Below are positions 51,060-55,686 of a stretch of DNA of 64,000 nucleotides, piece by piece. The notes under the pieces are model-generated. The model was not told where the DNA came from, did no database searches, and saw only the letters and a program-made list of their open reading frames with translations. Numbering within the stretch: the first letter of the stretch is position 1; every line of letters begins with the position of its first letter. Source of the stretch: a bacterium (GTDB lineage: Bacteria > Bacillota_I > Bacilli_A > RFN20 > CAG-826); the NCBI GenBank assembly GCA_963605025.1, contig CAVCSZ010000003.1, positions 9,201-73,200 of the forward strand, read 5' to 3'. The position numbers and the translations under genes were made by a program.

Positions 51060-52652
51060 TTATTCTATTAAATAGATGTTATCTTTAATCATTTCATTAT
51101 ATAAAAATAAAGCTTTTTCCCAATCTTCACCTTCATAAATATAATGATCTGAAGATAATTTATTAAATAATTTGTTAATATTAGAAAGATAATAATTAAA
51201 ATTTGAATCAATATTTTTATGATAGATTAAAGCTTTAAAATTAAACTCTAATCTTCTAAAAATAAATTGAGTGTCTACACTATCTTTTAAATCATTTTTA
51301 AATGCTATAAATTTACAAATAAAATAAGAATTAAGTAAACCTAATTGATTATTAATAATGTTATTTGGATTTAATTCATTAGAATAATCATGAGAAATTA
51401 ATCTTTTATTTATAAATAAGTATTTTGAAGAAAATAATGTTGTATTAAATATAAATAAAAAATCAGAATTAAATTTATTGTAAGGTAAAAAGAATATATT
51501 TTGATTAACAATAAATTCTTTTTTAAACATTTTATTAGATAAAATATTTTTTAAATCTCTTCCTATAAAGAAATTTCTACAAAGATTAATGTTATTTAAA
51601 TTTTTAACTTTAAGAATGTAATTTAAAGATTTATGATATTTATTTTTCTTTTTATAATAATATAAACATTCTACGATATCAGCATTTTTAGAATTAATTA
51701 ATTCATATAAATTAGATAAATAATCTTCTTTTAAAATATCATTAGAATTAATAAAAGAAATATATTTAGAAGGTATTTCTTTAATAATATTATTTAATCC
51801 TTCTTCTTTTAAAGAAGAAGATATTTTTAAAATAAATTTATCATTATATTCTTTTAAATAATTATTAATTAATTCAATATCTTCTTTAAGTTCATTATTA
51901 ATTAATAAATAAGTAATAAAAGGTACTTTAATATTTTGAGTAATAATAGAATCTAATAATTCTTTTAAATGATTATTTTTATTATAAATAGTAACTATTA
52001 ATCCTATTTGATATTTATTAATAAATTCTTTTGGTAAAGAAAATTCACATCCACAATAATTCTGACGATATATATTATATTTTTTAGCAATTTCAATACC
52101 TATTTCTTGTCCATTATTCTTTTTAAAATCACTATAAATATATTTAATAGAAGGATATTTTAAATTTATCTTTTCATTAATTAAATTAATATAATCAGAA
52201 TCTTTATTACGTGATACACTCATTACAGTAGCAACATATTTAAAACCTTTTAAAGTTGCTACTTCATATAATCTTTCCATTCTTTTAAGAATACATATTT
52301 TACATCTATTCATTCCTTCTTTTTGATCTTTAAAAGGTAATAAATCTATTTTAAAAGATTCATAATCATAATCATCTTCTATTAAATCTATTCTTATTTT
52401 ATTATCTATAAAAAAATCATTTAAATATTTTCTTAAAGATTCTAATCTTTTATCATATTCGCTTTTAGGATAAATATTACTATTAGAATATAAAATAGTA
52501 ATATCAAATAAATCACTTAAGTACATTAAAGGATATGCACTACAAGCACCACAACAAACATGTAATAATAATTTAGGTTTATCATTCTCTATCTTTCTAA
52601 TTTCTCGATATTCTTTAACAAATTCTAAATAATAATTCTTTTTATTATCCAT
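51060..52652 (-). CDS. queH: Fusion protein: epoxyqueuosine reductase QueH (DUF208) N-terminal domain plus a C-terminal GT2-like glycosyltransferase domain
   Basis: N-terminal ~210 aa have LLLHVCCGACSAYP, YSNSNIYP, RCKIC and YRQNYCGCEFS (QueH Cys motifs). C-terminal ~320 aa have a GT-A pattern (IGLIVTIYNKNNHLKELLDSIITQ; DxD positions read LLINNE and FINSND). It is the last gene of the queT-tgt-queA operon. Confidence 0.6.
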   Translation of the reverse strand: MDNKKNYYLEFVKEYREIRKIENDKPKLLLHVCCGACSAYPLMYLSDLFDITILYSNSNIYPKSEYDKRLESLRKYLNDFFIDNKIRIDLIEDDYDYESFKIDLLPFKDQKEGMNRCKICILKRMERLYEVATLKGFKYVATVMSVSRNKDSDYINLINEKINLKYPSIKYIYSDFKKNNGQEIGIEIAKKYNIYRQNYCGCEFSLPKEFINKYQIGLIVTIYNKNNHLKELLDSIITQNIKVPFITYLLINNELKEDIELINNYLKEYNDKFILKISSSLKEEGLNNIIKEIPSKYISFINSNDILKEDYLSNLYELINSKNADIVECLYYYKKKNKYHKSLNYILKVKNLNNINLCRNFFIGRDLKNILSNKMFKKEFIVNQNIFFLPYNKFNSDFLFIFNTTLFSSKYLFINKRLISHDYSNELNPNNIINNQLGLLNSYFICKFIAFKNDLKDSVDTQFIFRRLEFNFKALIYHKNIDSNFNYYLSNINKLFNKLSSDHYIYEGEDWEKALFLYNEMIKDNIYLIE

Positions 52653-52733
52653 ATAATTATTTTATATTATTTAAAATTAATTATAAAGAAAATAAAAAAT
52701 TACTCCTAATTAATAGAAGTAATTTTTTAATAA

Positions 52734-53756
52734 TTATTCAATAAACATTGAATCTCCAAAACTAAAGAATCTATATTTATTATCTACTGCATGTTTATAA
52801 CATTCTAAAGTAAATTCTCTTCCCATAAATGCACTTACAAGCATTACTAAAGTAGATTTAGGTAAATGGAAATTAGTAATAACTGCATCTACTACTTTAA
52901 ATTTATATCCAGGTTCTATAAATATTTTAGTGTCATCTCTATCTTCTTTAAAACAATTATTCTTAGTATATGAAGCTTCTAAAGTTCTTATAACTGTAGT
53001 ACCTACTGCTATTATTCTTCTATTTTCTTTTTTAGCAAGACTTAATCTACTAGCAACATATTCATCTATTTCATAATGTTCACTATGCATTACATGATCT
53101 TTAGTATCATTAACTTTTACAGGTCTAAAAGTACCTAATCCAATATTTAAAGTAACATCTAATATTTCTACACCTTTTTCTTTAATTTTTTCTAATAATT
53201 CATTAGTAAAATGAAATCCTGCAGTAGGTGCTGCACTACTTCCATTTATTTTAGCGTATACAGTTTGATATTCACTTTTATCTTTCATTTTCTCATGAAT
53301 ATAAGGAGGTAAAGGCATTATTCCTACTTTATCTAATACTTCTAAAAAGATTCCTTCATAATAGAATTTAATAATTCTAATACCTTCATCTCTAACTTCA
53401 ATACATTCTCCTTTTAAAATATCTTTAAAATCAATAAATGTACCTACCTTAATTGTTTTAGCGTTTCCACATAAACATTCATAAGTATCTTTAGATATTT
53501 CTTTTAATAATAATACTTCTACTTTAGCACCTGTCCCTTCTTTTATTCCATATAATCTAGAAGGATTAACTTTAGTGTTATTTCTTACTAAAACATCTCC
53601 AGGTTTTAAATAATCAATAATATCATAAAAATGTTTATCTTCATATGTTTTAGAATCTTTAAAGACATGTAATAATTTACATTCATCTCTTATTTTAGAA
53701 GGAGATTGTGCAATTAATTCTTCTGGTAAATAATAATCAAATAAATTTATATCCAT
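52734..53756 (-). CDS. queA: S-adenosylmethionine:tRNA ribosyltransferase-isomerase
   Basis: MDINLFDYYLPEELIAQSP N-terminus and overall QueA pattern; 340 aa. Confidence 0.9.
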   Translation of the reverse strand: MDINLFDYYLPEELIAQSPSKIRDECKLLHVFKDSKTYEDKHFYDIIDYLKPGDVLVRNNTKVNPSRLYGIKEGTGAKVEVLLLKEISKDTYECLCGNAKTIKVGTFIDFKDILKGECIEVRDEGIRIIKFYYEGIFLEVLDKVGIMPLPPYIHEKMKDKSEYQTVYAKINGSSAAPTAGFHFTNELLEKIKEKGVEILDVTLNIGLGTFRPVKVNDTKDHVMHSEHYEIDEYVASRLSLAKKENRRIIAVGTTVIRTLEASYTKNNCFKEDRDDTKIFIEPGYKFKVVDAVITNFHLPKSTLVMLVSAFMGREFTLECYKHAVDNKYRFFSFGDSMFIE

Positions 53757-53758
53757 AT

Positions 53759-54889
53759 TTAAAAACCTCTTGAATCTCCATATTTCTTTAATACTTCTTC
53801 TTTATATTCTTTAAATCTATCTTCTTTAATAGCGTTTCTAGCACCTTCTACAATTGAAAGAAGAAATCTTGTATTATGAATTGATAATAATCTTTTACCA
53901 AATGCTTCATCTGAAACATATAAATGTCTTAAATATGCTTTAGTAAAATTTCTACATGTATAACAATCACATTCAGGATCTAAACATGTAAAATCTTCTT
54001 TATATTTTAAATTTTTAATATTAATTCTTCCATTATGAGTCATTAATGTTCCATGACGCGCAATACGAGTAGGTAATACACAATCCATCATATCAACACC
54101 TTTTTCAATACCTGTTAAAATATAATCTAAACTTCCTACTCCCATTAAATAACGAGGTTTATCATAAGGTAAATAAGGTATTGCCATATCAATCATATCA
54201 AAACAAACATCTTTTGGTTCTCCAATTGAAGTACCTCCAATTGAATATCCATCAAAATCCATTTTTACTAATTCTTCTGCACAATATTTTCTTAAATCTG
54301 GATATGCTCCCCCTTGAACAATTCCAAATAATGCTTGAGATTTATTTTTATGAACATCTTTTCCTCTTTTAGCCCATCTTAATGTTCTTAAAGTAGAATC
54401 TTTAGCGTATTCATAACTTGCAGGATAAGGAATACATTCATCAAAAGACATAATGATATCTGCTCCAATTTTTTCTTCTATACCTATAACTATTTCAGGT
54501 GAAAAGAATATCTTATCTCCATTTAAATGAGATTTAAAAGTTACTCCTTCTTCTTTAATATCTCTACTTTTAGCAAGTGAAAAAACTTGGAATCCTCCAC
54601 TATCAGTAAGCATAGGTCCATTATAATTCATAAATTTTTGAACTCCACCAGCTTTATAAACTATATCTTCTCCTGGTCTAAGATGTAAATGATAAGTATT
54701 AGCAAGTACAACTTGACTTCCCATTTCTTTTAATTCTTCTGGTGATAATGTTTTAACAGTAGCTAAAGTACCAACAGGCATAAACATTGGAACTTCACAA
54801 TCTCCATGAGGAGTATGTAATATTCCATATCTTGCTTTAGTAAATTTATCTTCGTGTAATATTTCTAAATAAAATTCTTTCTTTTCCAT
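53759..54889 (-). CDS. tgt: Queuine tRNA-ribosyltransferase
   Basis: Zinc site CxCxxC..H ([10 protein letters not shown]) and catalytic Asp residues; 376 aa. Confidence 0.9.
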
Positions 54890-54923
54890 AATTCAAATGA
54901 ATTATACTAATTATTAAATTAAA

Positions 54924-55508
54924 TTACCATTTAAAATCAATATTTCTAGTAGCATTTATTATTTTTCCATATCCATGATATGCTTTTAAAAGCATAAAAA
55001 TAATATAACCAAATACATTAATAGATAATAATTCTCCAAGTAATACCCATCCCCACATAACAAAATATAACATTGGAGTAAAATTAAATGCATCTTGAGT
55101 ATTTAAACATGCTAAATAAATAATTAAAGGCACCATAAATGCATTTACAAAACATGGAATTAATCCAGTTAAAAATAATGATTTAACTTTCTTAGAAAAT
55201 ATAATCATTAATATACAAGAAATAAATGTTGCTAATGTACCTAAAGTAATATCATAAATTCCACTACTACTAGCAAAATTAGCAAGTAAACATCCAATAG
55301 TTAATCCTAAAGTATAATGAGGATTAAAAAATACTAATAATACTAAGAATTCACTAAATCTAAATTGCATATAAGAATAAGATAATCCTAAAAAATTACC
55401 TAAATAAGTTAAAACAGCATATAAAGCCGCAATTAAAGCATTAATGCATAATGTTTTAACATTAAAAGCATCCTTCCAAAAAGAAGACTTCTTTTCATTT
55501 TGTTCCAT
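54924..55508 (-). CDS. queT: Queuosine-precursor transporter QueT (ECF-type S component, COG4708)
   Basis: About 190-aa polytopic membrane protein that is the first gene of the tgt-queA-queH operon, as is typical for QueT. Confidence 0.55.
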   Translation of the reverse strand: MEQNEKKSSFWKDAFNVKTLCINALIAALYAVLTYLGNFLGLSYSYMQFRFSEFLVLLVFFNPHYTLGLTIGCLLANFASSSGIYDITLGTLATFISCILMIIFSKKVKSLFLTGLIPCFVNAFMVPLIIYLACLNTQDAFNFTPMLYFVMWGWVLLGELLSINVFGYIIFMLLKAYHGYGKIINATRNIDFKW

Positions 55509-55598
55509 ATTAATTTCCCCCTGTTTTATTTTAAGAGTGGTTAGTCATGGGAATAAGTTATTTAATTAACTTACAAGACACTCTAGTAGAACATATCT

Positions 55599-55627
55599 AT
55601 TATATATATCTAAAGAATAAATATCAA
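55599..55627 (-). promoter_or_regulatory. Sigma-70-like promoter (TTGATA-N17-TATAAT) for the queT-tgt-queA-queH operon
   Basis: Read from the minus strand, about 90 nt upstream of the queT ATG. Confidence 0.4.
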
Positions 55628-55635
55628 AAAGAAAA

Positions 55636-55686
55636 TAAAAAAAGTTATTAATTGAAGGTAGGATTTCAATTTAATAACTTTTTTAA
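55636..55686. terminator. Bidirectional rho-independent terminator after the amino-acid ABC operon
   Basis: 15-bp stem (agttattaattgaa / ttcaatttaataact) flanked by an A-run and a T-run. Confidence 0.6.

Follow-up and report, generated by a model that had tools for sequence, protein, structure and literature searches.

What becomes of a glycosyltransferase once it is covalently joined to a tRNA-modification enzyme? The question is raised by a gene on contig CAVCSZ010000003.1 of the bacterial assembly GCA_963605025.1, within a stretch of 64,000 nucleotides that was analysed as a whole and is called the window below. An initial annotation, made from the letters of this DNA alone, had proposed that a queuosine (Q) operon, queT-tgt-queA-queH, ends in a 530-residue protein in which the epoxyqueuosine reductase QueH continues into a glycosyltransferase (GT) domain resembling family 2 (GT2). 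It had offered two possible meanings: a bacterial Q-glycosylation step, or a degenerate, non-catalytic domain retained for binding of tRNA or of a sugar-nucleotide. The evidence as a whole is best explained by fusion of queH with a neighbouring GT2 gene, followed by erosion of the GT half to a retained, non-catalytic pseudo-glycosyltransferase, a reading that we consider fairly probable. The operon comprises the following features:

55599..55627, minus strand: promoter-like site upstream of queT (TTGATA-17-TATAAT, 11/12 matches)
54924-55508, minus strand: queT, queuosine-precursor transporter, 194 aa (Pfam PF06177 QueT, 127 bits against a cutoff of 33.7)
53759-54889, minus strand: tgt, tRNA-guanine(34) transglycosylase, 376 aa (Pfam TGT, 518 bits)
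52734-53756, minus strand: queA, S-adenosylmethionine:tRNA ribosyltransferase-isomerase, 340 aa (Pfam Queuosine_synth, 428 bits)
51060-52652, minus strand: queH::GT2 fusion open reading frame, 530 aa (Pfam QueH and Glycos_transf_2)
52023..52652, minus strand: QueH domain, residues 1-210, predicted to be intact (Pfam QueH, 170 bits)
51384..52022, minus strand: eroded GT-A (GT2) core with a short linker, residues 211-423 (Pfam Glycos_transf_2, 38.3 bits)
51063..51383, minus strand: C-terminal helical subdomain, residues 424-530, with a fusion-specific motif at residues ~503-513
51038..51053, minus strand: intrinsic-terminator-like hairpin, TGCGATGAAAATCGCA then a T-run, directly after the fusion stop codon

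The que operon and the two halves of its last product

The N-terminal half of the 530-residue protein is predicted to be an intact epoxyqueuosine reductase. Pfam QueH (PF02677) covers residues 28-206 with 170.4 bits (cutoff 23.5, E=5e-50) and profile positions 1-173 of 175, and the Cys motifs CCxxC, RCxxC and CGC are present within HVCCGACS (31-38), RCKIC (116-120) and YRQNYCGCEFS (195-205). These motifs are invariant across 17 fusion proteins, among which the majority of all columns of this half are invariant as well. The QueH half matches Thermotoga maritima QueH (E=1e-24) with the Cys motifs aligned, Foldseek places it on 7lc5 with a template modelling (TM) score of 0.87 and 31% identity, and the queT/tgt/queA gene context fits an epoxyqueuosine-reducing role.

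The C-terminal half is of GT2 type, as had been proposed. Pfam Glycos_transf_2 (PF00535) matches residues 219-347 with 38.3 bits against a cutoff of 23.3, and every motif quoted in the initial annotation is found in the translation: IGLIVTIYNKNNHLKELLDSIITQ at residues 216-239, and, at the substituted DxD positions, NNE within LLINNELKED and NSND within FINSNDIL. An AlphaFold2 model computed on the family alignment contains two well-folded domains, the second with a GT-A fold, at a mean predicted local distance difference test score (pLDDT) of 84.3 and a predicted TM score (pTM) of 0.61. Confidence is low only at the linker (205-209); the GT core reaches a pLDDT of ~90, and the C-terminal subdomain, composed entirely of helices, ~85-90. 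The closest fold match of the GT half in Foldseek is CgT/GalT1 (5hea, TM 0.75), then TarP, TarS, RmlT, WrtF and SpsA, with a probability of 1.0 for 5hea, TarP, TarS and SpsA.

Relatives of this protein exist as two separate genes with an overlap of a few bases. An apparent fusion could thus arise from one indel error in sequencing or assembly, or from a missed stop codon, and the initial annotation had listed such a frameshift among the outcomes that would undo its proposal. The reading frame is nevertheless unbroken across the QueH/GT junction, and a frame of 320 codons staying open at 14% GC has a chance probability of ~1e-15 (our own arithmetic, with ~10% of random codons being stops). The identical protein occurs at NCBI and in an independent Logan assembly of SRR13434680, a 2-residue variant lies on another contig, and two ENA assemblies carry an orthologue of 72% identity in an unchanged gene order. 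The survey of QueH homologues that had been suggested returned the QueH+GT2 architecture over its full length in ~24 clusters (90% identity clustering) that are 40-100% identical. Moreover, the linker is unlike the unfused junction, and the fused proteins form one clade with a unique C-terminal motif. The artefact is effectively refuted, and we rate it as extremely improbable.

Wherever context could be retrieved, the fusion lies between queA and the S10 operon, and the order queT-tgt-queA-fusion-S10 operon recurs in distant members, which points to vertical inheritance within one clade. Relatives identified by genome scan come only from metagenome-assembled genomes of uncultured gut "Bacilli bacterium" and from Candidatus Onthovivens. 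The initial annotation knew of no such protein, and no description of a QueH-glycosyltransferase fusion was found in the searchable literature, and the QueH-pseudo-glycosyltransferase architecture appears undescribed.

The four genes queT, tgt, queA and queH::GT2 form one unit, delimited by a promoter-like site and a terminator-like hairpin. They are co-directional, as had been noted, with the correction that they lie on the minus strand. The proposed operon was borne out by Pfam for all four products, and Tgt and QueA also match NCBIfam equivalogs (TIGR00430, 518 bits against a cutoff of 307, and NF001140, 448 bits against 324). QueT would import the precursor that Tgt would insert at tRNA position 34; QueA would build epoxyqueuosine, and QueH would reduce it to Q. 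The unit is one of preQ1 salvage and queuosine maturation. Its terminal hairpin, which belongs to a class of terminator-like sites found 5 times against 0.5 expected in shuffles, sets it apart from the S10 ribosomal operon that starts just downstream. The promoter-like site of queT has the top score in the region; it is a consensus match only, and the total number of such sites is not above that in shuffles. Control by a preQ1 riboswitch is common for queT genes of Firmicutes. We found no Rfam hit for it at gathering score in the window and none at E<=10 in 55400-55800; the queT leader (55509-55693) carries only the strong sigma-70-like promoter match.

Origin and decay of the glycosyltransferase half

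What lies between the que genes and the S10 operon varies among relatives: this slot is occupied by corA, an aminotransferase, the S component of an energy-coupling factor (ECF) transporter or GT genes. In Candidatus Onthovivens (L002), a stand-alone QueH of 208 residues is followed directly by the S10 operon, with no GT. In other loci (L004, L005, L088, L090, L175, L177), the next gene after queH is a separate GT2, which overlaps the end of queH or directly adjoins it, and L010 and L095 show the opposite order, GT2 before queH. A GT4 gene is translationally coupled to GT2 in L005 and in L175, where the order is queT-tgt-queA-queH-GT2-GT4. Further neighbours are a UDP-galactopyranose mutase gene (glf, 1564-2676, plus strand) in L010 and a 427-residue membrane-embedded GT2 synthase with a QHVRW motif (4606-5889, minus strand) in L095. 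Close GT2 homologues also occur away from que genes: P0159 and P0165 are part of GT4-GT2-GT4 clusters beside pmbA/tldD, P0168 adjoins corA with no que gene nearby, and no que remnants were found beside the non-que homologues of L089 and L092.

A profile of the canonical family, searched against the PDB, retrieves CgT/GalT1 (E=1.5e-46), then TarS, a Bacteroides GT2, TarP and RmlT. Given these CgT/TarS-type relatives, the GT4, glf and membrane-GT2 neighbours and the GT4-GT2-GT4 clusters, the ancestor was therefore in all likelihood a soluble envelope-type GT2 working with a GT4. These comparisons trace the GT half to a neighbouring gene for a soluble envelope-type GT2 of the CgT/TarS/TarP type. 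That gene lay in this variable slot upstream of the S10 operon, and loss of the one stop codon that separated them fused it to queH in one AT-rich lineage of gut Bacilli.

Three observations concern individual relatives. The glf gene and the membrane GT2 flanking queH/GT2 suggest that these Bacilli, which look wall-reduced, have a pathway for a surface glycan of galactofuranose type; the galactan synthases of mycoplasmas are comparable. A link between glf and queH was considered and rejected, as it is a single case (L010), with none in the window or in other loci save the unrelated L046. In L086, which represents the lineage of P0021, queA and the fusion gene are separated by the S component of an ECF transporter (200 aa, PF12822, 6349-6951); a QueT is also present upstream, and the S component may be a second precursor transporter. 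The L004 contig (CAVGUA010000114.1) is labelled Parabacteroides goldsteinii, yet has the Bacilli-type synteny galT-galK-queT-tgt-queA-queH-GT2-S10 and a QueH 57% identical to that of the window, and is probably mis-binned.

A neighbour-joining tree of 47 GT domains unites every fused domain in a single clade. Unfused GT2s, que-adjacent or not, all keep xxDxxND, F[VI]DGDD[FY]V and xxEDxxF. Within the fused clade, these hallmarks are kept only by P0007, P0015, P0017, P0019, P0021 and P0022. One eroded sub-lineage has NSND, DSND, SSND or NAED together with SD, ST or EE at the ED motif, another has ESTS, ESSS, EPTD or GLNG, and a third has DSTS with NN at the ED motif. Since different sub-lineages carry different substitutions, there were at least two or three independent losses. 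The tree and the motifs thus indicate one fusion, after which, and only then, the catalytic motifs decayed repeatedly.

In the window protein, INN, NSND and SD stand where unfused relatives have xxD, DGDD and ED, so that the nucleotide-binding Asp and both Asp of DxD are replaced by Asn. The residue set of an active GT2 (nucleotide-binding Asp, DxD, ED) is consequently absent, and the family positions R77, G80, G86, R160, W164 and E186 are lost as well. We expressed decay as the number of survivors among 38 positions that are invariant in the unfused family. The window protein keeps 16/38, other eroded fusions 16-26/38 and the intact fusions (P0015, P0017, P0019, P0021, P0022) 36/38. GT2 enzymes unrelated to the family (<=30% identity) keep 26-31/38; even these members of other GT2 subfamilies thus preserve more of the GT2 signature than the window protein does. 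The latter scores 38 bits with Pfam GT2, where unfused relatives reach 96-97 bits; compared with distant fused members, its QueH half is 64-71% identical but its GT half 30-32%; and in the 72%-identical sister protein the ED motif is wholly lost (ST). The Asp-to-Asn changes (GAT to AAT) would fit AT-biased mutation under weak constraint, and the lower GC content of the GT half (14.3%, against 20.0% in the QueH half and 25.6% in the whole window) is as expected for weaker constraint combined with AT pressure. Judged by these residues, the GT half is most probably a catalytically dead pseudo-glycosyltransferase. As an aside on composition, 55% of its residues are F, Y, I, N or K, and its coding sequence (51060-52022, minus strand) is among the most AT-rich coding stretches of the region.

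Has selection on this half ceased? We estimated the ratio of nonsynonymous to synonymous substitution rates (dN/dS) against the sister species L093 by the NG86 method, approximate in such AT-rich DNA, and obtained 0.03-0.12 for ribosomal proteins, 0.10 for Tgt, 0.14 for QueA, 0.19 for the QueH domain, 0.26 for QueT and 0.50 for the GT half, the last composed of 0.56 in the GT-A core and 0.41 in the C-terminal subdomain. The bootstrap confidence interval of the GT half is 0.35-0.72, with 0/500 replicates reaching 1, and its value exceeds that of QueH in 99.6% of replicates (P=0.996). Comparison at strain level, with the 2-residue variant (P0111), is uninformative because there are only two differences. 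A 320-codon frame that stays open at 14% GC in every cluster likewise excludes neutrality. The estimates point to relaxed purifying selection on the GT half.

What selection retains is most evident near the C-terminus. Mean pairwise identity among the 17 fusions is 0.64 at residues 501-520, against 0.29-0.43 in the rest of the GT half and 0.70 in the QueH domain, and within the sub-clade of the window it rises to 0.87 at these residues. They include the acidic motif Y-x-Y-E-G-E-[DE]-W-E-K (YEGExWEK, residues ~503-513), which is present in all fused proteins, both intact and eroded, with E507, G508, W511, E512, K513 and Y518 invariant in 17/17. At the corresponding place, unfused relatives show no more than N[ST]PWE or GMPWEK. 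An adaptation to RNA binding was considered and rejected, as the GT half shows no basic gain: its net charge is +6, against +11 to +21 in unfused relatives.

We infer an accessory role for the GT half. After the fusion, sugar-transfer chemistry would have become dispensable; its signature eroded independently in several sub-lineages, while relaxed purifying selection maintained the fold, and an invariant motif that is new to the fused proteins appeared at the C-terminus. The GT half would now serve QueH non-catalytically, in folding, stability, oligomerisation or partner docking. The degenerate, non-catalytic domain of the initial annotation is thus the alternative that we favour, although its suggested function needs to be revised: the residues that would bind a sugar-nucleotide are gone, which makes that role unlikely, and the charge shows no sign of tRNA binding.

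Queuosine glycosylation and other readings of the GT half

Galactosyl- and mannosyl-queuosine (galQ, manQ) have been assigned to eukaryotes only, and bacteria have glutamyl-queuosine (GluQ) (PMC7694415); the earlier statement that glycosylated Q is so far a eukaryotic modification is in agreement with this. The enzymes that glycosylate Q are QTGAL (B3GNTL1) and QTMAN (GTDC1) (PMC11755703). We compiled a QTGAL hidden Markov model (HMM) from 48 proteins named "queuosine-tRNA galactosyltransferase" by NCBI/UniRef, all of them Pfam GT2; the bait sequence used for their retrieval is itself no evidence. Generic bacterial GT2s (n=93) score a median of 45.6 bits with this model (maximum 83.7), the unfused que-linked family (n=21) 43.0 (maximum 52.7), intact fusions (n=5) 34.3 (maximum 40.1) and eroded fusions (n=17) 10.9 (maximum 25.7). 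A specific kinship to QTGAL was rejected, as the family scores no higher than generic GT2s. QTMAN belongs to the GT4 family. The best relative of the GT4 neighbour in a PDB sequence search is TarM, then WlaC and BshA-type GT4s; GTDC1 is absent from its 33 PDB hits (E<=1), and no direct comparison of this GT4 with GTDC1 was made.

Gene adjacency was compared with a background of 80 generic GT2 loci from a metagenome scan that returned mainly such enzymes. A GT4 neighbour is found in 20/80, and que genes lie within 6 kb in 1/80 (L095), which is the closest relative in the scan. Being next to queH is thus a trait particular to this GT2 lineage, and this still speaks for a link. All genomes with the adjacency nonetheless form one clade with conserved synteny, and a swap of adjacent genes keeps them adjacent, so that the adjacency can be historical, as is that of the galactose genes galT and galK. 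The latter pair was itself considered as a clue to the use of UDP-galactose and rejected: both genes are present in the window too, separated from queT by a transporter cassette. Its presence upstream of queT in the window as in relatives is therefore ancestral synteny without a GT2-specific link.

The genes concerned lie beyond queT in the window. The Leloir-pathway genes galK (60804-61952, minus strand) and galT (61971-63485, minus strand) encode products that share 58% and 56% identity with their counterparts in L090 and L004. An ATP-binding cassette (ABC) transporter cassette (55694-58518, minus strand), which encodes a solute-binding protein, a permease, an ATPase containing an exceptionally long insert (338 aa) and another solute-binding protein, separates them from the que unit; in L004, L088 and L090, galK is followed directly by queT. 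Upstream of this cassette, which is of the polar-amino-acid type, is a lysine riboswitch (59481-59643, minus strand, 82.6 bits).

We now weigh the readings of the GT half against one another. If a GT2 beside or fused to QueH placed a hexose on the cyclopentenediol of Q34 once Q had been made, with the eroded forms as relics or non-canonical enzymes, one would understand why GT2 occurs so persistently beside queH, in three arrangements (fused, queH-GT2, GT2-queH) with translationally coupled junctions, and why que genes are so rare near generic GT2s. Intact motifs in the unfused genes and in some fusions agree with this, as does the assignment of eukaryotic QTGAL to Pfam GT2, and the operon queH-GT2-GT4 resembles the situation in eukaryotes, where QTGAL is of family GT2 and QTMAN of GT4. 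Yet catalytic motifs have been lost repeatedly next to an almost invariant QueH, close homologues occur without que genes, the nearest characterised relatives act on envelope or secreted glycans, and galQ and manQ are not known in bacteria. For the window protein itself, Q-glycosylation is not supported, with 22/38 positions lost, an envelope-type ancestry and no kinship to QTGAL, and we regard the reading in general as quite improbable. A narrower version, in which GT2 (with its GT4 partner) glycosylates Q34 in relatives with an intact enzyme (separate genes adjoining queH, such as those of the queH-GT2-GT4 locus L175, and the fusions P0015, P0019 and P0021) and the window domain is a structurally retained relic, is something of a long shot too; if true, it would be the first case of bacterial glycosyl-queuosine.

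The GT half might instead remain an active glycosyltransferase of envelope glycans or glycolipids, with diverged catalytic residues and tethered to QueH by chance. Envelope-type ancestry, purifying selection and the well-predicted fold would suit such a bifunctional protein, and the Asp of the ED motif is kept in the window protein (SD), and D325 is nearly invariant. We give this little chance in view of the three Asp-to-Asn changes at nucleotide- and metal-binding positions of GT-A, the lost R77, G80, G86, R160 and W164, and the full loss of the ED motif in the sister protein; the search of the whole 64-kb window turned up neither a GT4 nor a glf or membrane GT2 as partner, and conservation is concentrated in the C-terminal motif instead of the active-site regions. 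The GT half could, finally, be a decaying passenger with no present role, heading for deletion. It has the lowest GC of the region and the highest dN/dS of the operon, its catalytic residues are gone, and both differences from the nearest strain variant fall within it. We consider this unlikely, as dN/dS is significantly below 1, the frame has stayed open in all ~24 clusters down to a domain identity of 30%, the C-terminal motif is invariant and the fold is confidently predicted; useless sequence is, moreover, normally deleted quickly from small AT-rich genomes.

Several points also weigh against a retained, non-catalytic pseudo-glycosyltransferase. The window protein keeps the Asp of its ED motif, and Asn can sometimes replace Asp where a metal or nucleotide is bound. 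Relative to QueH, the GT half has diverged ~2.2-fold in eroded pairs, against ~1.7 in intact fused pairs and 1.4-1.7 in unfused pairs, and so modest a rise means that catalytic erosion is unmatched by a collapse of overall constraint. GT2 stands immediately beside queH in eight unfused lineages and, overall, in the three arrangements named, and a functional link may be underrated. The dN/dS values are approximate, the pTM of the model is only 0.61, and the charge gives no signature of RNA binding that would support an accessory role.

In sum, fusion to a neighbouring gene followed by loss of catalysis accounts best for these data, and it bears on how such loci are read. Automatic pipelines would label this protein "bifunctional QueH/glycosyltransferase", and to deduce bacterial glycosyl-queuosine from the fusion would be unsafe here; the fusion is an evolutionary curiosity and no evidence that bacteria add sugars to queuosine. 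It offers a clean natural example of gene fusion by loss of a stop codon between overlapping neighbours, followed by repeated catalytic decay with the fold kept, and, with intact and eroded versions within one clade, of a pseudoenzyme in the making. The YEGExWEK motif marks a surface of interest, given that the electron donor and partners of QueH are poorly known. Sister lineages with an intact GT2 (and GT4) behind queH are candidates for asking whether bacteria add sugar to Q.

Comparison with known systems

QueH takes part in other fusions as well. A second recurrent architecture, of ~525 aa and found in a dozen clusters (P0025, P0027-P0029, P0031, P0033, P0035, P0038, P0043, P0048, P0052, P0055), joins it to an APH-type kinase (PF01636, sometimes with PF01163), which could be a Q-related accessory or an accidental fusion of neighbours. 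Many further QueH fusions (P0032-P0110) come mostly from Patescibacteria/CPR-like sources, and their partners include VanZ (PF04892, ~300 aa), RNase HII (PF01351, ~400 aa), a MraY-like transferase (PF00953), radical-SAM domains, a biotin/lipoate ligase (PF03099) and FtsJ (PF01728). QueH is apparently fusion-prone in small genomes, which weakens any Rosetta-stone inference.

Compared with known QueH proteins such as that of T. maritima, the first 210 residues of the window protein correspond to a full-length QueH in fold, sequence, Cys motifs and gene context. Known QueH proteins are, however, single-domain proteins of ~180-210 aa, and here a GT-A and helical module of 320 residues is added.

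The closest relatives of that module in both sequence and structure are CgT/GalT1 of Streptococcus parasanguinis, TarS, TarP and RmlT, which are likewise built of a GT-A core and a helical region C-terminal to it. Enzymes of the CgT/TarS type keep the nucleotide-binding Asp, the DxD motif and the catalytic base, where the window protein has N, NSN and SD. Their substrates are envelope or secreted glycoconjugates, whereas the window domain is covalently joined to a tRNA-modification enzyme. With QTGAL, the GT half has in common the Pfam Glycos_transf_2 (GT-A) assignment and a link of some kind to queuosine, but no specific kinship, the eroded fused domains scoring only ~11 bits with its HMM.

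A further analogy is with pseudoenzymes, an example of which are the non-catalytic Gtf partner proteins of serine-rich-repeat glycosylation. Similarly to these, the GT half has kept its fold and remained under purifying selection while losing catalytic residues, and conservation has shifted to a surface away from the active site, that of the C-terminal motif. Unlike the Gtf partners, it is joined to an iron-sulfur, tRNA-modifying reductase, to which it would now contribute in an accessory role.

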